A stretch of DNA of 13,483 bases. Source: Nitrospinota bacterium. GTDB lineage: Bacteria > UBA8248. The notes under the pieces are model-generated. The model worked only from the letters and a program-made list of their open reading frames with translations, was not told the origin of the DNA and searched no databases. The translations under genes and the position numbers were made by a program. Numbering within the stretch: the stretch's first letter is position 1; the number at the start of each line of letters is the position of its first letter. Shown piece by piece: positions 1 through 13,483 of this stretch. The DNA lies in the NCBI GenBank assembly GCA_046581755.1, contig JAYGFR010000166.1:1-13483 (forward strand), read 5' to 3'.

Positions 1-447
1 GTCCTCCATTTCAATGTGACCGAGAACCCAACGGCTGAGTGGACCGCTCAACAGATCGTGGAGGCCTTTCCATACGGCACTGCCCCAAAGTATCTCCTTC
101 GGGACCGGGACAAGGTCTACGGGGACTACTTCCAAAAGAGGGTGGAGGGCCTGGGTATAAAGGAAGTGCTGATCGCTCCCAGGAGTCCATGGCAGAACTC
201 GTACGCGGAGCGAGTCATTGGCTCGATTCGCAGGGAGTGTCTGGATAGCGTCATCGTGCTGAACAAAAGACACCTGAAGAAAACGCTTGCGAGATATTTC
301 GATTATTACCACCGCTGGCGCACGCACCTCTCGCTCGACATGGACGCGCCTGAACATCGACACGTTCAGCCCATTGAACTCGGTGATGTCGTCGAGTTTC
401 CAGACATCGGCGGACTGCAGCACCATTACGAGCGCCGAGCGGCTTAA
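1..447 (+). CDS. Integrase-core (rve-type DDE) transposase, 5'-truncated by the window edge
   Basis: The frame is open from base 1 (VLHFNVTENPTAEWTAQQ...). It contains YLLRDRDKVYG (second catalytic Asp), PRSPWQNSYAERVIGSIRRECLD (catalytic Glu) and YYHRWRTHLSL, and ends GGLQHHYERRAA, typical of IS3/IS481-like integrase-core proteins. Confidence 0.9.
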   Translation, partial: VLHFNVTENPTAEWTAQQIVEAFPYGTAPKYLLRDRDKVYGDYFQKRVEGLGIKEVLIAPRSPWQNSYAERVIGSIRRECLDSVIVLNKRHLKKTLARYFDYYHRWRTHLSLDMDAPEHRHVQPIELGDVVEFPDIGGLQHHYERRAA

Positions 448-692: not shown

Positions 693-1982
693 TCACCTTC
701 CCAGGACTTCGCTTCTTGCTCCTCCGCACACATCCAGGATCAAACTCGCATAAACGCGCGTGCAGTTATAAAGGTCTTCGATGCTGACGTGCTCTCCCGC
801 ATTCGGGTCCCAACGACTCTCGGGCGTGGTGCGGAGCCTGCCCGAAGGCCCATAGTTAAGCGCGGGAACGTCAAAACGGTTCAGATAGGTAGCATCCGAG
901 ATATAGGCCTCAGAGATAATCTCCGGTCCCTCTCCGAATACAGCGCTGTGCGCCCTCACCATCGCCTTATAGACTGGAGAGTCCTCGCCCACCTCGGTCC
1001 CCGGCACCGACATCACGGTTTCGAGCACTGGATCGATCTCCGGATTCTCCCGCTTCACCTCGTCGAGCACCTCGAGAATTTCATTCTTCACGTCCATCAT
1101 GCTGACCGTCGGGGGAACGCGAGTGTCGATATAGAGAGTGCAGTAGACCGGCGTCCGGCTGCACCGGTAGGGCCAGCCACCCTCAATGGCGGCGATATTA
1201 AGATTTGCCGGGTAGCCCCGGTAACTACGCCGCTCTCGGTAGTCTTGTCCCCACTTGTAAAGCGTCTCGATGATCCGGGTCATCTGAAGAATCGTATTGG
1301 GAAATTTATGAGAATAACTGGTGTGCGAGGGCAGGCCCGTAAGAGTCACCTTGCTCCACATGTAACCCAGATGCCCTGGAAGCAAAGTCAGGCCGGTGGG
1401 CTCTCCAATAACGGCCAGATCGGCGATGCCCCCGTGGGTCACCATGTACCCCGTCCCTACGCCGCCTCCCCGGTAGAATGCCCCCTGGTAGCGGTCCACC
1501 GGACCCCGCTCGATCTCGCCCACCACCGCGGCGATGGTAACGTCACCGGAAAGTTCGATTCCCGTTCTCTGAACCGCTGCGACCGCCGCCGCGTAACATG
1601 CCAGCGCCCCTTTCATGTTGTAGATCCCCAGCCCGTAGATCCAGCCGTCCTCTTCAAACGATTTGGGGAGATAAGCCGGGTTGTCGGGCAGGAAGTCCTC
1701 CCGCCCCGTATAGGATGTGTCCATGTGGCCGTCGAAGAGAAGATGCGCGCCACCGCCCGAGCCCGGGAGGGTGCCGATGCAATTCGGCCGGCCGGGCTCG
1801 ACCTCCTGTATCCGGACTCTCAAGCCCATCTTTTTGAAATGACCTTCGATAAAACGGGAGCATTCCTCCTCCTCACCCGTGGCACTCGGGATATCCACCA
1901 GATCTCTCGCAAAGCGTACCAAACCATCCCGGTCTATAGCGCCCCATACTTTTTCGTGTTGCTCCGTGCGGATCTCGCCCAT
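693..1982 (-). CDS. M20-family metallohydrolase (ArgE/DapE fold), NaaA-like non-canonical active site
   Basis: Motifs DIPSATGEE, LLFDGHMDT, IYGLGIYNMKG, VVGEIE, VIGEPT, IEGG, YIDTR, SDATYL and LNYGP. The ATG at 1982 has AGGA 6 nt upstream; the TTG at 1988 is an alternative start. Confidence 0.9.
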   Translation of the reverse strand: MGEIRTEQHEKVWGAIDRDGLVRFARDLVDIPSATGEEEECSRFIEGHFKKMGLRVRIQEVEPGRPNCIGTLPGSGGGAHLLFDGHMDTSYTGREDFLPDNPAYLPKSFEEDGWIYGLGIYNMKGALACYAAAVAAVQRTGIELSGDVTIAAVVGEIERGPVDRYQGAFYRGGGVGTGYMVTHGGIADLAVIGEPTGLTLLPGHLGYMWSKVTLTGLPSHTSYSHKFPNTILQMTRIIETLYKWGQDYRERRSYRGYPANLNIAAIEGGWPYRCSRTPVYCTLYIDTRVPPTVSMMDVKNEILEVLDEVKRENPEIDPVLETVMSVPGTEVGEDSPVYKAMVRAHSAVFGEGPEIISEAYISDATYLNRFDVPALNYGPSGRLRTTPESRWDPNAGEHVSIEDLYNCTRVYASLILDVCGGARSEVLGR

Positions 1983-1997
1983 TTTCAATCCTACTCC

Positions 1998-2432
1998 CTA
2001 GCCATCGACAACAGCGACAACCTTTATCTCGATCAGACACCGCGGATCCGTAGCCATGCGAACCACCTGGACGCACGTCGAAGCCGGCCGATGGTCCCCG
2101 AAATACTCTTTTCTCACCTTCACCATGTCCCTGTGAGCGGTCATGTCCCTCAAAAAATATGTCGCTTCGACCACGCTATCGAGGGTGCCACCAGCGGCTT
2201 CAAGGCTTTTTTTAATCTTATCGAGACAAACTCTCGTTTGGCCCTCCATGTCCTGGGGCATATCGTCAAATTCTTCGGGCCGATGAGGATGACTATGATA
2301 AGCGGGAGCCGCCGTGCATCCCGAGAGAAAAATCAGCTTTCCTCCCGTCACCGCGACGCCAGCGGCATAGTGTGACTGGGACAAATCATCGGGCGCATCT
2401 GTCAAATCCACCATCTCCATATGTTTCGACAT
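1998..2432 (-). CDS. Rid (RidA/YjgF/UK114) family protein, Arg-less type with His-rich insertion
   Basis: LIFLSG, QTRVCLDKIKKSLEAAGGTLDSVV, RPASTCVQV and LIEIKVVAV. A GAGGAG RBS lies upstream. Confidence 0.9.
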   Translation of the reverse strand: MSKHMEMVDLTDAPDDLSQSHYAAGVAVTGGKLIFLSGCTAAPAYHSHPHRPEEFDDMPQDMEGQTRVCLDKIKKSLEAAGGTLDSVVEATYFLRDMTAHRDMVKVRKEYFGDHRPASTCVQVVRMATDPRCLIEIKVVAVVDG

Positions 2433-2570
2433 GGCTGCTCTCCTCTTTCCTCATTGCATTCGAACAATTTTCAAGAAAGCCAACAACATTATGTAAGGTC
2501 AAAATTCAAGCGCTGGATACGCTCAAAAAAAACCGGCTTCCCCCGCAGAATATGCAGCTTCAGCGCAGGC

Positions 2571-3413
2571 TTAGAGCTCCCGGATCATCCCCCACCGCTG
2601 GACCGTATAAACCTCCAGAGAGCGGAGTACGACCCTTTCGAGCAAAAACCCGAAAACACCGATCAACAGAACTCCCGCATACATGACATCTATCTGAAGG
2701 AAATCCTGGGCCAGAAATATCCGGTAGCCGAGACCCGTGCCAAGCGAGACGAGCAGCTCGCCCCCGACCAGAATCCGCCATGCCCGGGAAAATCCCAGCC
2801 GGTAACCTGTGATGATGGACGGAAGGGCCGCGGGAAACAGAACGCGCCGAAAAAAAGCCCATCCCCTGGCTCCCAACACACGGCCCGCATAAAGCATATT
2901 AGGCGGAATGGATTTCACTCCCGTCCAGGTGTTTACCAAAACGGTCAAACCGGCTTCAAATCCCAGAACAACGATGAGGGTCGTCTCGGAAAGACCGAGA
3001 AACAGTATGACGATGGGAAAAACGGCGATTCCGGGGATCGAGAGGAAAAAATTCAGCGGCGGGATAATTATTTTTTCGGCGATGCGGTTCGTTCCCATGA
3101 TGAGGCCGAAAACGGTTCCAAACATGCAAGCAACCAAACCACCGATCAAAACGCGTGACAGGGAAGCGAGGATGTCCGGGATAAGAATCCCTTCGCTGAA
3201 AAGATGTCCTATCGTTCCGATTACCACGGTGACTGTCGGAAAAAGCGCCGTGTGGATTATTTCCGATCGAGCAAGAAGCTCCCAGAGAACAAACAACGCC
3301 AAAAGAGGCCAAGTATTTTCCCAGGCGGTTGAGAGGTAATACATCCACTTACCCTTGCCCGGATCGATTATTTCCACCGCCTTAGTATCCAATGATGCTT
3401 CGCCTTGAGCCAT
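2571..3413 (-). CDS. ABC transporter permease, NitT/TauT (SsuC/TauC-like) family
   Basis: LWELLAR..LFP, SLSRVLIG, SIPGIAVFPIVILFLG, the EAA-like loop AGRVLGARGWAFFRRVLFPAALPSIITGYRLG, and GLGYRI, with several hydrophobic segments. Confidence 0.93.
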   Translation of the reverse strand: MAQGEASLDTKAVEIIDPGKGKWMYYLSTAWENTWPLLALFVLWELLARSEIIHTALFPTVTVVIGTIGHLFSEGILIPDILASLSRVLIGGLVACMFGTVFGLIMGTNRIAEKIIIPPLNFFLSIPGIAVFPIVILFLGLSETTLIVVLGFEAGLTVLVNTWTGVKSIPPNMLYAGRVLGARGWAFFRRVLFPAALPSIITGYRLGFSRAWRILVGGELLVSLGTGLGYRIFLAQDFLQIDVMYAGVLLIGVFGFLLERVVLRSLEVYTVQRWGMIREL

Positions 3414-3464
3414 TTTGCCCCCCCCAACTTCAGCTTATTGATATTTCGTGAATTTCAAAAATTA

Positions 3465-4757
3465 TTAAACCTCACTGGCTTCCCGCCCACAAATCTCCGC
3501 AGCCGCGGCTGCGTAGACGCGAGCGCAAGCAGCAAACTCATCCACGTGTAAATGCTCGCCGATATCTTTTGACCAGCCCCAGACACCGCCTTGCTGAGTC
3601 CGCCCCCCCCGGTCCATAAACGATAGTGGTGATTCCGCCTCGCTCAAGGTGGGTGGCGTCGTGGCCGGTATGCTTGTAAACATGGGCGGGAGGAACACCC
3701 GTCAACATCTCGTGGGCCGCTGAGACCGCTCCCGCGACCGGGCTGGAGGGGTCAAGAGCAACACCGGGATTCATCACATACAGCTCCACCTCGGCCTCGA
3801 GGTCCTCATCGGTTTAGCGCAGGCCCTCGATAATTTCCTCAAGCTCCTGCTTTACATCCATCGAATTCTGGTCGTGAATGGTCCGGACATCGATATAAAG
3901 GCTGCACTCAATGGGATTGCGGGCCGCCCGCCACGGCCAACCGCCCCGCATGGAAGCGATGTTGACGTTCGGGCGCTCGCCCAGATACTCATGGCGCTCC
4001 TGATAAGAAGGAATCCACTCTTTTATCGCCTGATATATTTTTACCGCCTTATCTATGGCGCTGACGGCCGGGATCTATGGATATAGCCCGTGTGCGAGAC
4101 GGTCCCCCGCGTTGTGATTTTGACCCAAGTGCTTCCCATGTGGCCCACCCCTAGCTGGAGGCCGGTCGGCTCACCCAAGATGCAATAGTCGGCCACCTGT
4201 CCGTGAGCCACGAGGTGTTTCGTCCCCACCCCGTAACCGGAATATTCCACGCCCTGAAATTCATCCACGGGCGCCTTTTCCACCTCACCCACAACGGCGG
4301 CCAGCACAATGTCGCCGCACCGCTCCACGCCCGACTCGACGATGGCCCGTATAGCGGTCAAGAAAGCAGCGAGGCCGCACTTCATGTTTTTCACGCCCAA
4401 GCCGTATAGCCAATCTCCCTTGCGAAATCCCTTGGGCTTGTAGCCGGGGCTGAAAAGATATTCCTCATCGCCCCGATAGGATGTATCCATATGGCCGTTC
4501 AACATGAGAGATGGCCCGCCGCCCCTTCCGGGCAAAACACCCACGGCGTTGAAGCGCCCCTGCGAAAGCTCCTGGCGAATCGAACGCATATCAAGGACTT
4601 CATATTGCTCAAACATGAACTCCGCCATCTCGGCTTCGGAACCTGTCGGGGAGGGAATGTCCACCATCTGCAAAAGGAGTTTGATGGCGGAATCGACATC
4701 GACGCGCTCAGATAAAGCACGAGTCATCTGCTTGAGAGATTCATCCGGGTTGGCCAT
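3465..4757 (-). pseudogene. Disrupted M20-family hydrolase, paralog of 693..1982
   Basis: Manual translation gives a continuous paralog (NGHMDT, GVKNMKCG, GEVEKAPVDEFQG, GEPT, RGGWPWRAARNP, YIDVR, YGPGGR, GEHLH). It is broken by a frameshift near 4075, an in-frame TAA at 3816-3814 and an extra G in a G8 run at 3603-3610. The span is 1293 bp, or 431 codons. Confidence 0.9.
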
Positions 4758-4778
4758 TTCGAAACGCCCCCTCCTAGC

Positions 4779-5627
4779 TCACTCCAGCAACTCTTTTTCT
4801 GAAAAACCAGACTGTTTCGGTTCGGGCGGCATTACACCTGGTTGCATCCCAAAATCGTCTTCAATCTGCTGCTCGATAAGATTTTCAAGATGCCGCTCGT
4901 ACTTCATCAACGAGTCGGAAAGGGAAATACGGTCTTCATAAGAAAGATCAATCGAAATGGTTTCCACCACACATCCCGGGCGGCTACTCAACACCACCAC
5001 CCTTTGGGAGAGAAATACGGCCTCGCGGACGCTGTGGGTAATGAACACGATGGTTTTTTTCGTTTCCCGCCAGATGTCAAGGAGTTGAACCTGAAGGCTC
5101 TTGCGTGTCTGGGCGTCAAGAGAACCGAAAGGCTCATCCATCAGCAATATTTCGGGCTCAGTCGCCATGGCGCGGGCGATTCCCACCCGCTGCTTCATCC
5201 CGCCCGAAAGGCGATGAGGAAACACATCGGCAAACTCAAGAAGGTTCACAAGCCGCAGATAATGCTCTGCTATGCGATCCTGCTCCTCCTTGGGCAACCC
5301 TTTCATTGAAAGGCCGAATTTGACATTGTCCCGGACCGTCATCCAGGCGAAGAGCGCAAAATCCTGAAACACGACGCCGCGATCTAGGCCTGGTTCGTTT
5401 ACCGGCTTTCCGTCGAGAAGCAGGGTTCCGGAATCGAAGGGATGAATGCCCGCCACCACCATCAGGAAAGTGGACTTCCCGCAGCCGCTGGGACCAATAA
5501 CTGTGACAAGTTCGCCTTCGCTCACCTCCAGAGTCAGATTCCGCAGAGCGTGCACACGGGAGCGCTTCCCGAAGCCCTCATTAATCACGTAGGACTTGTC
5601 GAGGTTTTTTACCACGAGTTTGGACAT
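4779..5627 (-). CDS. ABC transporter ATP-binding protein, NitT/TauT (SsuB/TauB-like) family
   Basis: Walker A GPSGCGKST, Q-loop VFQDFALF, signature LSGGMKQRV, Walker B LLMDEPF and H-loop FITHS. The ATG at 5627, downstream of GGGAG, is preferred over the TTG at 5648. Confidence 0.95.
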   Translation of the reverse strand: MSKLVVKNLDKSYVINEGFGKRSRVHALRNLTLEVSEGELVTVIGPSGCGKSTFLMVVAGIHPFDSGTLLLDGKPVNEPGLDRGVVFQDFALFAWMTVRDNVKFGLSMKGLPKEEQDRIAEHYLRLVNLLEFADVFPHRLSGGMKQRVGIARAMATEPEILLMDEPFGSLDAQTRKSLQVQLLDIWRETKKTIVFITHSVREAVFLSQRVVVLSSRPGCVVETISIDLSYEDRISLSDSLMKYERHLENLIEQQIEDDFGMQPGVMPPEPKQSGFSEKELLE

Positions 5628-5695
5628 CTTCGTTCTCCCGCCGAACAACTTCGGCCAAAGCGCAAAGTCCCGCGTGCCGATGGAAGAATACGATC

Positions 5696-5729
5696 AAATC
5701 GGCGGGAGGGGCGCCCCTCCCGCCGATTT
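5696..5729. terminator. Perfect 34-bp palindrome; intercistronic stem-loop (mRNA stabiliser or partial terminator)
   Basis: AAATCGGCGGGAGGGGCGCCCCTCCCGCCGATTT equals its own reverse complement. It lies about 40 nt after the binding-protein stop codon and has no long U tract. Confidence 0.65.
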
Positions 5730-5768
5730 CACCTAAATCGCACCGCCCGTATCCGGATGGCTGGCTGG

Positions 5769-6746
5769 TTATTTACCAAGAGCCTTGTTGGTGAATTCGG
5801 GCATCAAGGCCTTTTTGAAATCAGGAATGAATTTAATCTTCTTGATGTCGTACATCATCTGCGCGAAGTTATTAGTGTCGGTCATCACATCGTCATCGAA
5901 CGTCATCTTATCGTAACCGCGCGTATAGATACCGGCTTTCACTTTGGCCCTCGGAATGGTCAGCCCCCATCCCTTGTAAGCCTTCGCCATGATATCGACG
6001 GTCTCTTTGTGGTTGCTGTTGACGAATTTAATCGCCTTGAGCCAGGCATTCACGAATTTTTGCGTGGTGGCCTTGTTCTTTTTCACCCAATCGCAGTTAG
6101 CATACAGGAACACCGGGTAAACGATTTTGCCGACCCGCGACCACTCGTCGTTCGTAATCAGCACGCGGGCCAGCCCCTTCGAGACCATGATTGAGGCATA
6201 AGGCTCCCAGGCCACGGCAACGTCAATCGAACCGGACTGGAACGTCGCGGGGATGAGCCTCGTCTTCAGATTTTTGACGATGTAGTCCTTTTCCTTGAGA
6301 CCGGCGTACTTGAGCAAAATCCGCCATGCGACGTATGTCCCCGAGCCGACCTGGATCGCAAGCCGCTTGCCCTTCAAATCGGCCATGGTCTTGGAGGTTT
6401 TGTCCCGGACCGGAACGAGGATCTTGGACGTAAGGCCGTACTGCACCATCCCGATGACGCAGAGCGGGAGGCCCTTTGCGAGAACCTGAATGACGCGGGA
6501 GTGAAGGCCCACCCCCATGTCGGCGGAGCCGCCGATAACCGCCTGGAGGGAAGCACTTCCGGAGCTTTCGGCGAAGACCTTGACATCAAGGCCCTCCTCT
6601 TTGAAAAAGCCTTTCTGTGAAGCCACCTCGTTCACGATCGCCTGGGTGCTCCGGTTCGTGGACAACCGCACGTCCGCCGCATCGGCACTGTGAGAAACGG
6701 AAAAAACCATCCCAATTATTGCAACTGCGCAAACTAATTTCCTCAT
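5769..6746 (-). CDS. ABC transporter substrate-binding protein, NitT/TauT (SsuA/NMT1-THI5-like) family
   Basis: Signal peptide MRKLVCAVAIIGMVFSVSHSADA, followed by KGFFKEEGLDV, DLKGKRLAI..GS and GSIDVAVAWEPY. The ATG at 6746 is preceded by GGAGGG. Confidence 0.92.
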   Translation of the reverse strand: MRKLVCAVAIIGMVFSVSHSADAADVRLSTNRSTQAIVNEVASQKGFFKEEGLDVKVFAESSGSASLQAVIGGSADMGVGLHSRVIQVLAKGLPLCVIGMVQYGLTSKILVPVRDKTSKTMADLKGKRLAIQVGSGTYVAWRILLKYAGLKEKDYIVKNLKTRLIPATFQSGSIDVAVAWEPYASIMVSKGLARVLITNDEWSRVGKIVYPVFLYANCDWVKKNKATTQKFVNAWLKAIKFVNSNHKETVDIMAKAYKGWGLTIPRAKVKAGIYTRGYDKMTFDDDVMTDTNNFAQMMYDIKKIKFIPDFKKALMPEFTNKALGK

Positions 6747-6889
6747 TTCAACCCTCCCTCCCCGCCTAAACTCAGCAAGAAAAAAATTCACCTCGGCACA
6801 ATCGTACCCCTCTTGATCATGCGACCAAGAACCACGACTGAAACTCGCTGCATCAATCCTCTTGGATGGCTATTATTTTGATTAGAATA

Positions 6890-6918
6890 AATCTAACAGA
6901 ACTCTTTTTATCAATCAA
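6890..6918 (-). promoter_or_regulatory. Candidate sigma70 promoter for the ABC/M20 operon
   Basis: On the minus strand: TTGATT (6918-6913), a 17-nt spacer ending in TGt, then TAGATT (6895-6890), all within an AT-rich intergenic region. Confidence 0.5.
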
Positions 6919-6973
6919 GCATGTGTTACCCGTTTAATATGAATCATTTCAAAAATTATCCTCATCCAATAAA

Positions 6974-7369
6974 TTATTCAATCCCCAAAACGGCAATCGC
7001 CTGAATTTCGACCATCATCTCAGGGCGCGCGAAGCCCTTAACGGTTATCAGTGCGCTGGCGGGCGCGGCGCCGGGAAAAAACTCTTTCCGGATTGCCGTG
7101 AAACGATCACCGTGGCGCATATCGAGAATGAACACCGTCATCGTAACGATGTCCTCGAGTTTGCCGCCGCATTGCCCCAGGACTTCCCCGATGGCGCGAA
7201 AAGAAGCGCGGACTTGTGCGTCGAAATCGCCATGAAGCTGATTTCCCGTCCCATCCACGGTCCTGCCCACGCCCGCGAGCCAGACCTGCCGCCCTCCGCT
7301 GGTAATGACGGCCGGCGAAAAAGACCGTTCAATCTGTCTGGCGTTTCCTTCGAGGTATATTCTCGGCAT
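6974..7369 (-). CDS. Rid (RidA/YjgF) family protein, Arg-less type
   Basis: FSPAV, VWLAGVG, GDFDAQVRASFRAIGEVLGQCGGKLEDIV, APASALITV and MVEIQAIAV. Confidence 0.9.
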   Translation of the reverse strand: MPRIYLEGNARQIERSFSPAVITSGGRQVWLAGVGRTVDGTGNQLHGDFDAQVRASFRAIGEVLGQCGGKLEDIVTMTVFILDMRHGDRFTAIRKEFFPGAAPASALITVKGFARPEMMVEIQAIAVLGIE

Positions 7370-7405
7370 CTTAACTTCCTTGAGCGCAAAAATACGCCCT
7401 TCTCG

Positions 7406-8677
7406 TCAATCGGGGATATATGCGGCCAGGGACGCCAATATCCGGCATCCCGGAACCGGCATCGGTCCGCTTACCTCGGCGCTCAAGTTAACGGGCGCCC
7501 CGCCGGGGAACGATTCTTCCCAGACCTCGAAGGAGCCGTGCAAATCCGCCATATCGAGAAAGACCGTCTGGCTCCTCACCACATCGGCAAGGCTTCCCCC
7601 TGCCTCCCGGCAGATGGCGTCCGCATTCTTGAGGAGATAGCGGGTCTGTAACTTAATGGGCGAGCCGTACCAGGGAAGGGACGGATTGACTCTGGCCTCC
7701 CTTGCAAGACCGCCCTCGTCGGCGGCCATCTGGGTCGAGAGCCAAAGGTATGGCCCGGTCTTGACGGCGTGCGGCTCATGAAAGAGAGGCTTCGGCACGG
7801 AATCCGACATGATGGTTTGCCGCTTGAGACCACCGTCCAGCCGGAGGGAGATGGAGCTTATTTCTATACGCGAGCCGAGAATTGCCAGCTCATCACAGGG
7901 GATGATGACTCTGGCGGGGGGGTCGTCGGGGAAATACGACTCCCAGACGTAGTCGAAAGCGGGCAGATCCTCCATGTGGGAGAGATATACCGACACCTGG
8001 ACGATATCCTTGAGCGACATTCCCAACTCACCCAGAATCTTCTCCTTGGTGTTGACGATATATTCCGTCTGCCGCTTGATCGCGGATTGATGCCAGAAAA
8101 TGGGATCGACCCGGGCATCGGGATGGATGCCCGTCTCGTAGTCGGTGGCGATCATCCCCGGCATCAGGACAAACGGCCCAGCCGATTGGGCCGCTGGATA
8201 CCCCGTGAGGGACCCGGGCACAAAATCCATGTCGTGGGTTTCCTTGGTCCACGGCGAGCGGGGATTCAGCGCAAAACCGTCGCAGGCGATTAGGGCACCC
8301 GGAACCTCCAGGGCTTTCGCGCACACCCGCGTGCTTGTCGGATGCCCTTTTGTCATCACGCTTTGCCGGGCCGATGAATACCACGGTGCCTGATCGCGGC
8401 CGATGATGAATTGCTCGATCCGTACCAGATCCTCGAATCCCACGCCGCCGCTCTCGAGCACCTTCTCCATCCGCTGGAGCATGTAGCGCGTTTGCCTGAC
8501 CATGGAGGGCGGGCCGCAAAGGGATACCGCGTCGGGCACCACTGTTTCAGGGGCGAGGCCAGCGGCGTAATCCGTCGGCATCTGGCCGGAGAAGAATACG
8601 AAATGTTCCGTTTCGATGGCCTCGGACTGGGCCTTCACCGGGGCGGGGCAGTTTTGGGGAACAATGGTGCGTCTCAT
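7406..8677 (-). CDS. Triple tandem Rid (RidA/YjgF) domain protein, 423 aa
   Basis: The start is reassigned to the ATG at 8677 (GAGGTG RBS). Three repeats of about 140 aa each show the Rid pattern: FVFFSGQM/FVLMPGMI/YLWLSTQM, RQTRY/RQTEY/LQTRY, FEDLV/LKDIV/LADVV and PTSTRV/PARVII/PVNLSA. Confidence 0.88.
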   Translation of the reverse strand: MRRTIVPQNCPAPVKAQSEAIETEHFVFFSGQMPTDYAAGLAPETVVPDAVSLCGPPSMVRQTRYMLQRMEKVLESGGVGFEDLVRIEQFIIGRDQAPWYSSARQSVMTKGHPTSTRVCAKALEVPGALIACDGFALNPRSPWTKETHDMDFVPGSLTGYPAAQSAGPFVLMPGMIATDYETGIHPDARVDPIFWHQSAIKRQTEYIVNTKEKILGELGMSLKDIVQVSVYLSHMEDLPAFDYVWESYFPDDPPARVIIPCDELAILGSRIEISSISLRLDGGLKRQTIMSDSVPKPLFHEPHAVKTGPYLWLSTQMAADEGGLAREARVNPSLPWYGSPIKLQTRYLLKNADAICREAGGSLADVVRSQTVFLDMADLHGSFEVWEESFPGGAPVNLSAEVSGPMPVPGCRILASLAAYIPD

Positions 8678-8772
8678 GAATATCACCTCAAAATAAGAGG
8701 GCCCCTTCCACAAAAGGAAAGGAATCCACTGTGGCCTATGGAGAATGCTTTTCAATATACCATAGCCGGTCA

Positions 8773-8802
8773 TCGACAAAGGAGAGCCCCGGAAGGTAGA
8801 AT
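8773..8802 (+). promoter_or_regulatory. Candidate sigma70 promoter for the YciI-like and Rid genes
   Basis: TCGACA (8773-8778), an 18-nt spacer and TAGAAT (8797-8802), 46 nt upstream of the ATG at 8849. Confidence 0.45.
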
Positions 8803-8848
8803 TGTTTTTATCGTGTCCAAAAATAAATTTGTGGCCAGAGAGAAGGCT

Positions 8849-9196
8849 ATGCCCCTTTTTCGCGTACACGGAAAACCGGCGAAAGACGCGAGCAAGGATG
8901 ACCTGCGGGCGCTTCGCAACGAACATCTCCTGTACCACAATCAACTTGTGGCCGAGGGGAAAATGTTCGGTGCCGGGCAACTCGGCCATGATCAAGGGAT
9001 GTTCATTCTCATCTGCCAGGACGAATCCGAGGCACATGCAATAGTCGACAAGGATCCATACCTAAGGGAAAAGCTTCGCGACTACGAGATTCTCCCCTGG
9101 CGGCTCAACATGAGTTGCGTTGTAGACGTTGAAACCCGGGCCTCTCTGAACGGAGACGATCCCTCGAATCCGCGCTATCAGCCGCCCAAGAGTTGA
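8849..9196 (+). CDS. YciI-like protein (dimeric alpha/beta barrel, muconolactone isomerase-like)
   Basis: The start is reassigned to the ATG at 8849 (115 aa). It shows LRNEHLLY (R-x-x-H), GKMFGAGQL, GMFIL...SEAHAIVDKDPY (DP motif) and YEILPW. Confidence 0.8.
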   Translation: MPLFRVHGKPAKDASKDDLRALRNEHLLYHNQLVAEGKMFGAGQLGHDQGMFILICQDESEAHAIVDKDPYLREKLRDYEILPWRLNMSCVVDVETRASLNGDDPSNPRYQPPKS

Positions 9197-9245
9197 GCAG
9201 AGAAGCTCTTTCCCATCTCCTAAATTTTTAAAATGGAGTCCACGC

Positions 9246-9680
9246 ATGATTGAGCGCCACAACGTCATTCCCGAAAATATGTACAATCGCGCCGTCCGCG
9301 GACAATATATGTACTCTCCCCTGGTCGTCGTCCGCACAGGGGATCACGCCCACATCTACGTCGCGGGCCATACCTCCATTCTGCCGAACGGTGATATCGG
9401 GGGCGTGGGTGATATGCGCGAGCAGATTCGCATCGTTTGCGAGAAAATCCAGCAGGCGCTTGGAACTGTCGGAGCTACGTTGGACGACGTTGTGCGAACG
9501 ATCAGCTACACGCTGGATATCGAGGAATATTACCACGTGGTGGATGAGCGGTATAAATACTTCAACAACCAACTCCCTACGAACACCCTGCTTGGCGTGA
9601 GCCGGCTCGCCCATCCGGATATGGTGGTCGAGATCGAAGCAGAAGCCATCATCGATTCCGAAAGGGTAAAGATTCCTTGA
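9246..9680 (+). CDS. Rid (RidA/YjgF) family protein, Arg-less type
   Basis: YSPLVV, IYVAGHT, GDMREQIRIVCEKIQQALGTVGATLDDVV and PTNTLLGVSRLAHPDMVVEIEAEA. A GGAG RBS lies upstream. Confidence 0.92.
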   Translation: MIERHNVIPENMYNRAVRGQYMYSPLVVVRTGDHAHIYVAGHTSILPNGDIGGVGDMREQIRIVCEKIQQALGTVGATLDDVVRTISYTLDIEEYYHVVDERYKYFNNQLPTNTLLGVSRLAHPDMVVEIEAEAIIDSERVKIP

Positions 9681-9684
9681 AATG

Positions 9685-9710
9685 AAAAAGGGCCGAACCG
9701 CACCGGCGCT
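9685..9710 (-). terminator. Possible intrinsic terminator between convergent Rid genes
   Basis: The minus strand reads AGCGCCGG-TGCGGT-TCGGCCCT followed by TTTT, directly after the stop at 9710. The stem is short and imperfect. Confidence 0.35.
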
Positions 9711-10102
9711 TACTCGGGCGTCTCGGCGACGCACTCGACCTCAACCAACCAATCGGGATCGATAAGACGGGAAACCTGGACATGCGTGCTGGCTGGGCGA
9801 TGCTCACCGAACATTTCAAGGCGCACCTCGTTCATCGCTTTTCTGTTGTTCAAATCCACGCTGAAAACCGTGACCTTGATGACATTTTCCAGTCCCGCCC
9901 CGGCCTCGGCGAGAATAGTCTGGATATTCGTCAATACCTGGCGCATCTGGGCAGCCGGATCTCCCCTCCCCACCAGATTCCCCTCCCCATCGACCGAAAC
10001 ACATCCGCTCAGGAAGATGAGCGAGCCTCCCGTCACCTGAATCGCCTGGGTATAGACGCCCAGAGATTTGATTTTGGGAGAATTGATTTTTTTTGCTGTC
10101 AT
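9710..10102 (-). CDS. Rid (RidA/YjgF) family protein, Arg-less type
   Basis: GVYTQAI, LIFLSGCV, GDPAAQMRQVLTNIQTILAEAGAGLENVIKVTVF and RPASTHVQVSRLIDPDWLVEVECVA. An AGGAG RBS lies upstream. Confidence 0.93.
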   Translation of the reverse strand: MTAKKINSPKIKSLGVYTQAIQVTGGSLIFLSGCVSVDGEGNLVGRGDPAAQMRQVLTNIQTILAEAGAGLENVIKVTVFSVDLNNRKAMNEVRLEMFGEHRPASTHVQVSRLIDPDWLVEVECVAETPE

Positions 10103-10254
10103 CCGTTTTCTCCTGCGTGGGGTTTCCCTCGAAACAACGCCGGTCCAAGGTCAATATAGGTCCCGGAAAAATATTCGTTATTCAAGGTATTGCAAAAGCG
10201 ATGCATTAAAATTCGTGGTTATTTAAATGATGCATTAGACAACAAAGGATAGAA

Positions 10255-11181
10255 ATGCCGGACGGAGCCCGTCTCACACAACTAGCCTGGGGCGTCTACG
10301 CTTTCATCGCTGCCGGAGGCGACTCGAATGCCGGAGCGATTCTGACATCCGAGGGGCTTTTGGTGATCGACGCCCAGCAACATGCGACTCTTGGGCGGCA
10401 ATTTCGCCGCGCCCTAGCCCGCGAAACCGGAAAGCCGGTCGAATGGCTCATCTTCACACACTACCACCTTGACCACACCGGCGGGAGCCCGGTATTCGCC
10501 GAGGAAGCACCGGTGCTGGCACAAGAAAGAACCCGCGACAAGCTTTGCGCAATCCTCGGTCCGGGCAAGGAAAATCCTCGAAACGTCACGGACTTTGACA
10601 CGAAGATCCGCCTCCTTTTTGGTCCAAACATTGGCAGTCTCATTCCGCCTAACGACCCGGGATGGGCCTGGTTTAAGAAGCGCATCGCTTCGCCGGAATA
10701 CGAAACCGTGTCGGTGGCGCTGCCTACCCGCACGTTTACCCAGCGGCATACGTTTGATCTTCCCGGCCGGACCGTTGTTCTCGAATACGTAGGGCCCGCC
10801 CATTGCGAAGGCAACATCATCGTCTTCCTTCCCGAGAACCGAATTGTCTTCGTAGCCGACCTGCTCTTTGTGGGCCGCTTTCCCTGGCTTGGAGACGGCG
10901 ACATCGAGGGATGGATTCGGGCGCTCGACTGGGTAGCGGAGCTTGAAGTGGAACAGGTGGTTCCGGGCCACGGACCTCCCGTGACGCTGAAAGAGGTGGG
11001 TGAGTTCCGGGACATGCTTTTTGCCCTGCATGAAGCAGTAGCGGAGGCGGCAGCGTCGGGCATAGATGAAGATCAGGCAGCGGCGACGGTTCGCCTTCCC
11101 GCCTACGAGTCGCTTCCCCGCTACCGGGAATGGATGCCCTGGAACGTGCGAAACTTGTTCCGGGCACTCGGTGCCGAATAG
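10255..11181 (+). CDS. MBL-fold metallohydrolase (cyclase/glyoxalase II-like group)
   Basis: SNAG..LVIDAQ, the HxHxDH motif THYHLDHTGG, and downstream ligands AHCEG, ADLL and VPGHG. No signal peptide. Confidence 0.92.
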   Translation: MPDGARLTQLAWGVYAFIAAGGDSNAGAILTSEGLLVIDAQQHATLGRQFRRALARETGKPVEWLIFTHYHLDHTGGSPVFAEEAPVLAQERTRDKLCAILGPGKENPRNVTDFDTKIRLLFGPNIGSLIPPNDPGWAWFKKRIASPEYETVSVALPTRTFTQRHTFDLPGRTVVLEYVGPAHCEGNIIVFLPENRIVFVADLLFVGRFPWLGDGDIEGWIRALDWVAELEVEQVVPGHGPPVTLKEVGEFRDMLFALHEAVAEAAASGIDEDQAAATVRLPAYESLPRYREWMPWNVRNLFRALGAE

Positions 11182-11225
11182 ATTTTTTGAACTGTCGTTT
11201 CATGAAAGAGATCTAGGAGGAAATC

Positions 11226-12374
11226 ATGGTGAAAAATGTTTCATGGATAGAAAACAAAGGGTTCCGGCAGCTCGCTCGGATGGAGCTTCCAGGAGCCGGC
11301 CAAGTGGTGGTCGATGGAAACTACGCATACCTCGCCAACATGAAACCGCCTCTGGGCACCACCATCCTCGACATCTCCGATCCGAAAGACCCGAAGATTG
11401 TCTCCCAGATCGAAATCCCTCTCAACGTTCATTCTCACAAGGTGAATGTTTCGGGGGACATCATGCTTGTGAATCATGAAAAATACCGCTCCTACGAGGG
11501 GTCCGAAGTCTCCCGGGGGGGACTGAAAATTTTCGACATCTCCAACAAGGCCAACCCACGCGAGATTTCATTCGTCGAGGCCGGCGAGTGGGGATACCAC
11601 CGATTCACCTTCGACGGACGCTACTGCTACGGCTCCCCGTGTCCCGAGGGTTATGAGGGCAACATCGTGGGGATTCTCGACCTCAAAAACCCCGAAAAAC
11701 CCGAATACGCCTCGATGTGGTGGGCGCCCGGGCAGTGGGTGGGCGGCGGAGAGGAGCCCCGTCCGGAGGGCAGGCGGTGCCGGTGCCACCATCCCATTCG
11801 CCTTGGCGATCGACTCTATGCCGGCTGGTGGCTTGACGGCTGGTACATCCTGGATATCAGCGATTTATCGAAACCCGAATTCGTCAAGCACATCAAATGG
11901 CAACCCCCATACGCCCGCCCGACACACACCACACTCCCAATTCCGTTCGACATCAAGGGGCGGAAGATTCTGCTCGTGAGCGACGAGGAGGCACGCGATC
12001 AATATGCCCCGGTTCCGAATGGATTTATCTGGTTGGTGGATATCACCGAGGAAACAAACCCCGTTCCCATCTCGACATACCGGGCCCGGAAGGACGATGA
12101 ACCTTTCGATCCCGACTGCTGGTACGGCTGCCATCAGCCGCAGGAGCAGATCTACGGGGAGCAAACACACTTTGCGGTGACGTGGTTTGCCGGGGGCCTC
12201 CGCATGATTGACATTGCCGACCCCTGGCGAGTGGAAGAACTCGGCTACTATATCCCTGAACCGGGAAAAGGATTTGACATCACTCAGACCAACGACGTCT
12301 ACCAGACGCCTGACGGCCTTTACTACATCACGGACAGGCTCGGTGGTTTTGAGATTCTAGAATGGATAGGTTGA
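11226..12374 (+). CDS. LVIVD-repeat (beta-propeller) protein, cytoplasmic, His-rich
   Basis: Repeats TTILDISDPKDP, LKIFDISNKANP, GILDLKNPEKP, YILDISDLSKP, WLVDITEETNP and LRMIDIADP. An AGGAGG RBS lies upstream; no signal peptide. Confidence 0.88.
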   Translation: MVKNVSWIENKGFRQLARMELPGAGQVVVDGNYAYLANMKPPLGTTILDISDPKDPKIVSQIEIPLNVHSHKVNVSGDIMLVNHEKYRSYEGSEVSRGGLKIFDISNKANPREISFVEAGEWGYHRFTFDGRYCYGSPCPEGYEGNIVGILDLKNPEKPEYASMWWAPGQWVGGGEEPRPEGRRCRCHHPIRLGDRLYAGWWLDGWYILDISDLSKPEFVKHIKWQPPYARPTHTTLPIPFDIKGRKILLVSDEEARDQYAPVPNGFIWLVDITEETNPVPISTYRARKDDEPFDPDCWYGCHQPQEQIYGEQTHFAVTWFAGGLRMIDIADPWRVEELGYYIPEPGKGFDITQTNDVYQTPDGLYYITDRLGGFEILEWIG

Positions 12375-12686: not shown

Positions 12687-13376
12687 CTACTCTTCCGGCG
12701 GGGTGAGAGCCACCTCCGCCGTCTCGCCCATGATGACGTTGTCGGGCAGCAGGGTTGGCGGCTCGCTCGAGGCCATGTGTTTAAAAAAAGTGGCGGCCGC
12801 GCGCTTGTGGCGCTCGACGACGGCGTCGGGCATGTCCGGCGAGCTGCCGCGTCGCTTAAGGACCGGCCCCTCCGTCGTCGCGAGATCGTGCACGCCGTCG
12901 AAGTCGGGCACCGGCCTCCCGGTCCGCTCGCCCTGCTCGCGGTCCACGGTGCAATCGGCGACGATCCATCTACCGTTCAGGTAGACCTCGCCCGCCGAGT
13001 GCCAAGGTTGAGGGCGCGTTCCGTACATTTTGCGCATCTTCTCGGGCAGGAAGGGCTTGTCGGGACAATCGACGATCTCGAACCCGATGCGGGCCGGAAT
13101 ATCCGCCGCCCGGCACAGGGCGGCGAAAGCGGTCGCCTTGTGCATACAAAATCCCCGGCCTTCGCGGATGAAATCCGAGGCCTTGCCTTTTCCGTCGAGG
13201 AGCATCTGAAAACCGCCGGCAATGTCGAAGGTCAAGTCCCGGACATAGGCGTGGATGAGAATGGCTTTCTCGGCGTCGCTTGCGCAGCCCTCGGTGAGCT
13301 CGCGGGCTTTTTCCGCGACCAGCGGCGAGTCGGAGTCCGCGTATTTTCCGGGCTTCAGGTACGCGTCCATGTTCAC
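12687..13376 (-). CDS. Transglutaminase-like domain protein (Cys-His-Asp putative cysteine protease)
   Basis: YLKPGKYADSDSP, IHAYVRD, GFCMHKA (Cys), ALCRAADIPARIGF, WHSAGEVYLNGRW (His) and ADCT (Asp). GAGGAG lies 6 nt before the GTG at 13376; the ATG at 13370 is an alternative start. Confidence 0.9.
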   Translation of the reverse strand: MNMDAYLKPGKYADSDSPLVAEKARELTEGCASDAEKAILIHAYVRDLTFDIAGGFQMLLDGKGKASDFIREGRGFCMHKATAFAALCRAADIPARIGFEIVDCPDKPFLPEKMRKMYGTRPQPWHSAGEVYLNGRWIVADCTVDREQGERTGRPVPDFDGVHDLATTEGPVLKRRGSSPDMPDAVVERHKRAAATFFKHMASSEPPTLLPDNVIMGETAEVALTPPEE

Positions 13377-13483
13377 GGGTTTCTCCTCAAAAAATATGCC
13401 AGCACTGAAAAGGCCCGGGAATTTTCCCCGGCTATCCGCCCGCCTCGATGAGGGCGGGAAGAATTTCCTCGCCGGCAAGGCGG

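Follow-up and report, generated by a model that had tools for sequence, protein, structure and literature searches.

Results

A conserved Rid-rich gene cluster

The 13,483-nt stretch analysed here (JAYGFR010000166.1, referred to hereafter as the window) is one entire contig, C100, of a marine Nitrospinota metagenome-assembled genome and carries five Rid genes, with seven Rid domains among them, together with an ATP-binding cassette (ABC) importer of the NitT/TauT type, two M20 metallohydrolase genes resembling the 5-nitroanthranilate aminohydrolase NaaA, a YciI-like gene, a metallo-beta-lactamase-fold (MBL) hydrolase and an LVIVD beta-propeller. Comparison with relatives supports these genes being a conserved unit and not a chance pile, and we regard the whole as an undescribed, plausible cluster for organic-nitrogen catabolism. 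Judged from gene content, the operon at its centre likely imports a nitrogen-containing organic acid, the nitrogen of which is predicted to be freed largely by hydrolysis; we hold any particular substrate class with much less confidence than this general reading. An earlier note on this stretch, made from its letters alone, had listed the same Rid genes and domains, importer, M20, YciI, MBL and LVIVD genes, and all of them are present. The finding is real and conserved, the gene families had largely been read correctly, and three corrections are needed: one of the M20 genes is a pseudogene, most of the Rid domains are without the RidA arginine, and the operon is longer in a relative.

Eight genes form a minus-strand operon that runs from 8677 down to 693 in the order Rid3x (a single-chain triple Rid), Rid2, periplasmic substrate-binding protein (SBP), ABC ATPase, M20b, ABC permease, Rid1 and M20a. 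They share a single orientation and are separated by small gaps, the importer genes being interleaved with those for the Rid and M20 proteins in an arrangement that is kept in congeners. The genes for YciI and Rid4 lie on the plus strand, divergent from this operon, and both are masked by a spurious minus-strand open reading frame (ORF).

The source genome (4.22 Mb in 400 contigs, estimated to be 96.5% complete) has 11 further Rid genes elsewhere. By tblastn count, 5 of its 16 Rid genes fall within the 0.32% of the genome that the window represents, against an expectation of 0.05 (binomial P ~1e-9), and a six-frame genome scan places 7 of 20 PF01042 domain matches on this contig. The host is Rid-rich, yet not enough to explain the local density; the earlier note had itself named genome-wide Rid abundance as a way in which the cluster could have arisen by chance, and these figures speak against it.

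Gene order in congeners and across the family

Among congeners, the order Rid5 / Rid4-YciI / Rid3x-Rid2-SBP recurs in every locus that covers it. Extended by the ATPase, the same order is kept in two genomes (G001 and G002) and two metagenome contigs (L063 and L064), with orthologues mostly 80–97% identical and YciI, which is present in all congener loci covering its position, falling to 77%. The G001 locus is cut at the ATPase; G002, L063 and L064 go on with the permease, Rid1, M20a and a further gene, Rid0, and a short contig (L062) holds Rid4-YciI-Rid3x-Rid2-SBP up to its end. In G002, whose Rid3x is 95% identical to that of the window, M20a is followed by Rid0 (a sixth Rid gene, also found in L063 and L064), a class-IV aminotransferase and a hydantoinase B (HyuB) gene up to the contig end. 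The window has an insertion sequence (IS) fragment and its own contig end in the place of these three genes, and no close copy of Rid0 was found elsewhere in its own assembly (best match 46%).

A survey at the level of the family took in 21 genome loci with a Rid3x orthologue (59–95% identity) and their fetched flanks; the genomes are kin, and the counts overstate independence. An M20a-like gene (51–94% identity) lies in the flank at 12 of the 21 loci and NitT/TauT-like ABC parts at 14, while three loci are cut at or just after Rid3x. The earlier note had proposed searching other genomes for synteny and co-occurrence: gene order is kept in the congeners and a core of triple Rid, M20 and ABC genes recurs across the family, the MBL-LVIVD pair being missing beside the cluster in one congener. 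The usual form in genus g8 is Rid3x, M20, an NMT1-type SBP, an ATPase, two permeases and a GNAT gene.

Some other elements were observed at these loci. In genus g8 the spacer between Rid3x and M20 (L009:9868-10540, and the same gap in L027, L030 and L032) holds a small ORF that was considered as a conserved gene and set aside. Matches to it were seen at 3 of 12 loci, some of them on both strands, and at a second place in one locus, as would suit a repeat-like element. The cluster is also interrupted in relatives: L063 has an IS fragment separating LVIVD from Rid5, and in L019 an IS1595 transposase stands between the Rid2 and SBP genes.

Rid proteins and the RidA arginine

All five Rid genes match PF01042 above the gathering score, which we took to define membership, and all seven domains were seen in the six-frame scan with this model; the weakest, Rid3x domain 3, scores 27.1 bits and passes only with its neighbours (28.6 bits). 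None of the five reaches the cut-off of the NCBIfam RidA model TIGR00004 (106.25), the scores being 99.1 for Rid3x (three domains summed), 87.9 for Rid5, 56.6 for Rid1, 46.3 for Rid2 and 40.0 for Rid4; Rid5 is the most RidA-like in sequence.

According to the accessible text of PMC4433059, Arg105 of Escherichia coli TdcF/RidA is essential for imine hydrolysis, the subfamilies that it calls Rid4 to Rid7 are without this residue, ~10% of RidA-class proteins carry Ser in its place, and most Rid subfamilies without the catalytic arginine have no known function. The corresponding column was located in a MAFFT alignment of the seven window domains with the genome's 13 remaining Rid domains, of which six have P-A/T-R or H-A-R. 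The residue is Ser in Rid1 (1998..2432, minus strand, PF01042 E 2.9e-21; motif RPAST within RPASTCV, with a His/Pro-rich insertion in the protein), in Rid2 (6974..7369, minus strand, E 6.7e-19; APASA within APASALI) and in Rid5 (9710..10102, minus strand, E 2e-30; RPAST within RPASTHV), and Asn in Rid4 (9246..9680, plus strand, E 2.7e-18; LPTNT within LPTNTLL). Within Rid3x (7406..8677, minus strand, three PF01042 stretches), domain 1 has Ser at this position (PTSTR, with an invariant Arg two residues on), domain 2 has Arg (PPARV) and domain 3 has Asn (APVNL). Six of the seven domains, including all four single-domain proteins, are hence without the RidA arginine at the aligned position; orthologues at four congener loci have identical motifs, and those of relatives further away are similar. 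The earlier note had carried over the handling of imine and enamine intermediates from known Rid proteins; with this residue missing from six of seven domains, no simple transfer of that function can be made.

The real start of Rid3x is the Met at 8677, giving a protein of 423 residues; the long ORF begins further upstream, and the protein in relatives is conserved from that Met. Domain 2 alone keeps the Pro-Ala-Arg motif together with a Glu, and the best-kept positions of the homologue set cluster in this domain (Q203, P254, A255 and E272). An AlphaFold2 model built with 36 homologues (predicted local distance difference test score, pLDDT, 94.2; predicted template modelling score, pTM, 0.93) displays three repeats of the Rid secondary-structure pattern, and on the strength of this model we confidently predict a pseudo-trimeric single-chain fold. 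The only whole-chain matches found by Foldseek are the chorismatases 4bps, 5ag3 and 5a3k, with TM scores of 0.50–0.65 and 12–13% identity; chorismatases have a single active site and act on a ring carboxylate. The remaining matches are single Rid domains. The family goes by the name "RidA family protein" in the database, and L-PSP proteins of ~420 residues are common in Pseudomonadota. One relative, G010, has a second Rid3x copy (locus L037, G010:C1:1273173-1274442) in which a single TAA interrupts the gene, the alignment falling into two pieces. Behind this copy, two NaaA-like M20 genes stand in tandem on the opposite strand, and a further M20 gene lies upstream.

NaaA-like M20 hydrolases

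M20a (693..1988, minus strand, PF01546 and PF07687), the last operon gene within the window, has NaaA as its best solved relative (5k8m, E 1.5e-49 over residues 20–422), the next being 3pfo at 8.1e-18. As in NaaA, the canonical bridging Asp is replaced by Asn (Asn124, in G-x-x-N-x-K-G), and Arg278 is equivalent to NaaA Arg289, the residue that differs between 5k8m and the Arg-to-Ala variant 5k8p; this Arg is conserved in both M20a and M20b. Among solved proteins the full-length M20a sequence is closest to NaaA, and its alignment indicates a NaaA-like active-site signature. Across 24 family members neither Asn124 nor Arg278 varies, and we presume their roles by analogy with NaaA. Canonical ArgE/DapE membership is not borne out for M20a, which scores 161.7 against a TIGR01910 cut-off of 217.6, falls far below the cut-offs of the equivalog models and has Asn in place of the bridging Asp. 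The NaaA-like subfamily is large and has a single characterised member: at E <= 1e-30 the database contains at least 1210 of its proteins, which carry only the generic names "M20 family metallo-hydrolase" or "acetylornithine deacetylase". Homologues at 45% identity occur in Betaproteobacteria.

The earlier note had described two paralogous M20 hydrolases of atypical kind. Their paralogy and likeness to NaaA stand, and the second, M20b (3468..4757, minus strand), is a pseudogene: M20a aligns to this region by tblastn as three pieces in two frames, and the intact G002 orthologue of M20b (430 residues) aligns with it end to end, likewise in three pieces, at 85–94% identity. Relative to the G002 DNA there are three lesions, namely one base lost from a C-run near 4068, a TAA at 3816-3814 (TCA in G002) and an extra G in a G-run near 3603-3610. 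M20b is truly frameshifted in this species, because the 4068 frameshift is common to contigs of four runs from four studies (95–99+% alike). At position 3815 all four runs' contigs have G, giving Ser and no stop, and three of the four are missing the extra G at 3603-3610; the TAA is peculiar to this assembly, and it and the extra G are either rare variants or assembly errors. In L063 and L064 the M20b gene is gone, the ATPase being followed directly by the permease, and the gene is dispensable.

The part of the window that contains M20b and the ends of its neighbours (3400–4800) has matching DNA in runs from marine, seawater and hydrothermal-vent metagenomes, and marine and seawater metagenome contigs of several studies carry it. 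Six metatranscriptome runs hold small shares (0.08–0.16) of the sampled words of this stretch.

The importer

The window contains an NMT1/SsuA-type SBP (5769..6791, minus strand, PF09084 E 1.5e-27), one BPD_transp_1 permease (2571..3413, minus strand, PF00528) and one ATPase most similar to TauB/NtrCD (4779..5648, minus strand, PF00005 E 3.3e-32), which together make up a set that we take to be of the NitT/TauT family. The SBP probably starts 15 codons into the ORF, at the Met of MRKLV..., after which a signal peptide is visible. Its closest solved chains are 3qsl, SsuA, an NrtA-like protein and THI5, with TauA also among the nearest structures, and its score of 142.2 to TIGR01728 is below the cut-off (163.5). 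The best NCBIfam matches of the permease (SaoP, TauC, SsuC and NtrB) and of the ATPase (SaoA, TauB and NtrCD) are likewise all below cut-off; identity with the Sao transporter, a selenoprotein-linked system that supplies the top NCBIfam labels, was dropped at scores far below cut-off.

A truncated second copy of the permease gene was observed elsewhere in the genome (C191:1714-2405), covering residues 1–199 of 280 at 87% amino acid and 82.5% nucleotide identity. It retains ~100 bases of the upstream region, and the other cluster genes are not there.

The MBL-LVIVD pair

At the right of the cluster, genes for an MBL-fold hydrolase (10255..11181, plus strand, PF00753 E 5.7e-23, with no visible signal peptide) and an LVIVD beta-propeller, a predicted metalloenzyme (11226..12374, plus strand, PF08309 E 2.9e-14), stand side by side, both with variable linkage to the cluster. 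Solved relatives of the MBL protein are 8d2z and the chlorothalonil hydrolytic dehalogenase 6uxu (4.3e-13, partial coverage); it scores 123 to the "quinoprotein relay" MBL models, below their 280, and identity as a true beta-lactamase of subclass B1/B2 was rejected (best 69.2 against a cut-off of 200). The LVIVD model (pLDDT 80.9) finds its best fold match in the phosphotriesterase of Sphingobium TCM1 (5hrm, E 1.5e-16, TMq 0.68), ahead by seven orders of magnitude, and this enzyme is also its only sequence relative in the PDB (E 6.5e-10). Seven His, in clusters, and in addition acidic residues are invariant in 14 orthologues. Both proteins look like metal hydrolases; in the literature on LVIVD proteins we found no enzymology.

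The pair adjoins Rid5 in the window and in L064, where LVIVD is 89% identical. In L063 it lies nearby in inverted orientation, behind an IS fragment and an Amidohydro_2 fragment. Four other genera have LVIVD orthologues (72–76% identity) that stand paired with an orthologue of the MBL gene (59–61%). At the one such locus that was Pfam-scanned (L051), an Amidohydro_2 gene sits between MBL and LVIVD, and another NitT/TauT importer, two cyclase-family genes, a second Amidohydro_2 gene and a CN-hydrolase are near. The LVIVD gene of G010 stands beside three Rid4-like genes and a NitT/TauT importer, with two Rid4-like genes upstream of the Rid3x of that genome. The pairing of MBL with LVIVD is conserved, and the two genes are found repeatedly, though not in every case, alongside Rid4-type genes and the NitT/TauT importer family. 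As an observation apart, the MBL gene of L064 (L064:7505-8409) is only ~56% identical and aligns in two overlapping pieces, which suggests a frameshift or a different paralogue.

Remaining features of the window

The YciI-like protein (8849..9196, plus strand) matches PF03795 at E 8e-10, 39.5 bits against a cut-off of 24. At the left boundary, outside the pathway, is the C-terminal fragment of an IS3/IS481-type transposase (1..447, plus strand, PF13683 rve_3 E 9.6e-15) cut by the contig end, whose matches to NF033516 and NF033577 are far under cut-off. A transglutaminase-core-like gene (12687-13481) leaves the contig at the right end and was found near the cluster in no related locus. The earlier note had remarked on the lack of oxygenases and dehydrogenases in the window, and these families indeed gave zero matches among the ORFs scanned (20 in one scan and 5 in another). 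No Rfam family reaches the gathering score anywhere in the window, and counts of promoter- and terminator-like sites are no better than in shuffles (7 against 6.8, and 11 against 15.9, respectively); the best promoter-like site, at 8773-8802 before YciI, matches in 10 of 12.

Distant triple-Rid genes and the genome repertoire

Further context comes from 18 neighbourhoods of distant triple-Rid paralogues (28–39% identity) in three relatives. Additional single Rid genes stand in five of these, MBL genes in three, CN-hydrolase genes in two and an M20 gene with HyuB in one. Pfam scans resolved three such loci: the first has Rid-MBL-3xRid-Rid beside an NMT1-type protein, a cyclase-family gene and a Zn-dehydrogenase; the second reads isochorismatase-HyuA-HyuB-M20-3xRid; and the third combines a molybdenum hydroxylase of the xanthine-dehydrogenase type, an old yellow enzyme (OYE), GntR, two 3xRid genes, a second hydroxylase and a CN-hydrolase. 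On two metagenome contigs, triple-Rid genes (31–35% identical) directly adjoin a NitT/TauT ATPase and permease. This company is typical of N-heterocycle and amide catabolism; it fits the inference of the earlier note and names no substrate.

The window's own genome has matches to ~20 HyuB, 16 amidase, 13 cyclase, 14 luciferase-like, 11 MBL and 4 class-IV aminotransferase genes. Several of the HyuB paralogues (for instance on C57, C88, C279, C323 and C378) were observed near M20, class-IV aminotransferase, YciI or Rid genes. Such a repertoire of amide and heterocycle hydrolases is unexpectedly large for a lineage whose nearest relative is on record as a nitrite oxidiser (ODZ_NOB7a).

Discussion

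A proposed route and its alternatives

We read the cluster as encoding a catabolic route, coupled to an importer, by which nitrogen is obtained from an organic acid, and give this reading a probability of roughly 55%. The periplasmic NMT1/SsuA-like SBP would capture the substrate, and the permease and ATPase would import it. M20a may then cleave a C–N bond next to a carboxylate, either by deamination of an enamine-like or aromatic amine or by amide hydrolysis. Rid3x, with its one conserved site on domain 2, and the Ser/Asn-type Rid proteins would be dedicated catalysts acting on enamine, imine or tautomeric intermediates, as opposed to general RidA damage control, and YciI could assist as a small protein of isomerase- or tautomerase-like kind. 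Further metal-dependent hydrolytic steps may come from the MBL protein and LVIVD propeller at loci that have them; in the full operon of the sister genome, removal of the last nitrogen or ring opening would fall to the class-IV aminotransferase and hydantoinase-type enzyme.

The earlier note had proposed uptake and deamination of a nitrogen compound by a largely hydrolytic pathway. Uptake agrees with the presence of the importer in the conserved unit, and the N-heterocycle catabolic company of distant paralogues points the same way. As to hydrolysis, the closeness of M20a to the hydrolytic deaminase NaaA and the metal-hydrolase-like MBL and LVIVD proteins are in keeping with the claim, yet the pathway is not purely hydrolytic, because the G002 operon has a pyridoxal 5′-phosphate (PLP)-dependent aminotransferase and an ATP-dependent hydantoinase-type subunit.

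Several observations weigh against a nitrogen-harvesting route of this kind. At two of the 21 family loci (L020 and L022) Rid3x stands among unrelated genes, with full flanks and no window genes, and a third (L025) has no window genes in 3.4 kb downstream; G001 is without MBL-LVIVD beside the cluster and has unrelated genes at that position; and M20b is intact, broken or absent, depending on the congener. No regulator gene lies within the window. The nearest named families of the SBP are binders of sulfonate, taurine and nitrate. The identity of M20a to NaaA is only moderate (~400 residues aligned), and NaaA chemistry reportedly depends on a nitro-activated ring, so that plain amide hydrolysis is equally possible. 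Finally, going by their sequences, the arginine-less Rid proteins might bind ligands rather than catalyse.

The strongest competitor, which we consider possible although doubtful, is an operon that salvages lactams or amino acids bearing N-acyl or N-carbamoyl groups, in which the M20 proteins would be ArgE/DapE deacylases, a HyuB-type enzyme would open a cyclic amide, the class-IV aminotransferase would remove the amino group, and the Rid proteins would provide RidA damage control for the PLP enzyme. ArgE/DapE deacylase models are indeed the best NCBIfam matches of M20a and M20b, yet M20a misses the cut-off and the bridging Asp is Asn across the subfamily. The continuation of the G002 operon into Rid0, an aminotransferase of BCAT/D-amino-acid type and HyuB suits such a scheme, as do the ~20 HyuB paralogues and four class-IV aminotransferase matches of the window's own genome, some of them beside M20 or Rid genes; the aminotransferase and HyuB are, however, found neither in L064 nor in the family-level core. 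Clustering of Rid genes with those of PLP enzymes is documented (PMC4433059, accessible text), whereas here none of the four single-domain Rid proteins has, at the aligned position, the arginine that RidA needs for its activity on 2-imino acids, and five Rid genes far exceed a protective need.

Uptake of organosulfonate or taurine for sulfur scavenging, with the hydrolase and Rid genes as unrelated passengers, is very unlikely. The importer parts score best against SsuA/TauA, SsuC/TauC and TauB-type models and have SsuA and TauA among their nearest structures, but all scores are under the curated cut-offs, no desulfonating enzyme family was found in the window, and Rid and M20 genes stand between those of the importer, all in one orientation, an interleaving that congeners conserve. 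Other cargoes of NitT/TauT transporters include nitrate, pyrimidine precursors and aromatic acids.

Still more improbable is a biosynthetic cluster whose triple Rid acts like a chorismatase to make an aromatic building block, for which the sole whole-chain structural matches of Rid3x speak, at 12–13% identity and TM 0.50–0.65, and against which stand the lack of a TIGR04444 match for Rid3x, an importer with a periplasmic SBP, the hydrolase-type partners and the failure to find a synthetase, ligase or exporter in the window. Chance aggregation on a mobile, decaying island without joint function, as might be suspected from the IS fragment at the left end, the M20b pseudogene and the IS fragments or transposases that interrupt L063 and L019, is just as improbable when gene order is kept at 86–97% protein identity in several congeners, and partly at 50–75% across genera, and Rid clustering is far beyond chance.

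Within the preferred reading of an importer-coupled, nitrogen-harvesting route, a bolder and decidedly speculative version can be drawn, which we think improbable as it stands: that marine Nitrospinota related to nitrite oxidisers own an undescribed, oxygen-independent, Rid-centred pathway in which arginine-less Rid proteins and the Rid pseudo-trimer are the main catalysts, not aids to damage control, and, with a NaaA-type hydrolase and the optional propeller and MBL protein, mine ammonia from amino-aromatic or N-heterocyclic carboxylates of seawater. If true, Rid proteins of the Ser/Asn type, a large class, would receive their first assigned function. The picture of Nitrospinota nitrogen sources would broaden, should dissolved organic nitrogen indeed be reached by a hydrolytic route linked to an importer. 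The main value of the finding is that a conserved operon offers a concrete place from which to study what arginine-less and triple Rid proteins do.

Comparison with known systems

Thiamine-pyrimidine salvage combines the ThiXYZ importer with the M20 deformylase YlmB and TenA; it was considered and rejected for this cluster, with no thiamine pyrophosphate (TPP) riboswitch found (Rfam, whole window) and no TenA-type match among the scanned ORFs. The Rut pathway was likewise rejected: the best RutC score is 66.3 against a cut-off of 169.1, and the window has no luciferase-like, isochorismatase or alpha/beta-hydrolase gene.

The closest functional parallels among Rid-fold proteins are catabolic (RutC, a 3-aminoacrylate deaminase, accessible text of PMC8113886; AmnE, a 2-aminomuconate deaminase, accessible text of PMC6742747 and PDB 6izh). 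Like the window Rid proteins, among whose sequence and structure matches both appear, these are encoded in operons, which in their case are catabolic, and they release ammonia from enamine-carboxylates; their operons have one Rid gene against five here, and no Rut or Amn partner enzymes are present in the window.

NaaA of Bradyrhizobium sp. JS329 (PDB 5k8m-5k8p) has, like M20a, Asn where canonical enzymes carry the bridging Asp, and the two also agree in the Arg that 5k8p has mutated to Ala. The naa pathway continues with a ring-cleaving dioxygenase, absent from the window, and no Rid genes are reported for naa in the accessible text of PMC10306065.

Chorismatases FkbO and Hyg5 are the only solved single-chain Rid-fold pseudo-trimers and belong to a biosynthetic context, whereas Rid3x is part of an importer operon; membership of this family was rejected, TIGR04444 giving no match for Rid3x and matching Rid5 only (E 0.0067, 15.7 bits against a cut-off of 325). 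The phosphotriesterase of Sphingobium sp. TCM1 (a haloalkylphosphorus hydrolase, 5hrm/5ioj) is 18–19% identical to the LVIVD propeller and ~100–200 residues longer.

For the lineage itself, a comparative study of Nitrospinota (PMC10839748) gives nitrite, cyanate and nitrogen fixation as nitrogen sources and mentions no such cluster in its accessible text. The earlier note had not recognised the gene combination, and we too found no description of it in our searches of the literature on the Rid family and its fusions, NaaA and M20 proteins, Nitrospinota organic nitrogen and LVIVD. The parts all come from known families, and only their combination appears undescribed.

The triple-Rid architecture was already named 3x-RidA in 2015 (PMC4433059, accessible text), just as the NaaA family was already known. 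Like Rid3x, the proteins so named (for instance EF_0115 of Enterococcus faecalis) have three PF01042 domains in one chain of ~420 residues, presumed there to be a covalently linked trimer, a view that the pseudo-trimer modelled here bears out. Rid3x has Pro-Ala-Arg in domain 2 only; and, where that text gives no function or context for 3x-RidA, Rid3x is the first gene of an operon that also encodes an importer and a NaaA-like hydrolase.

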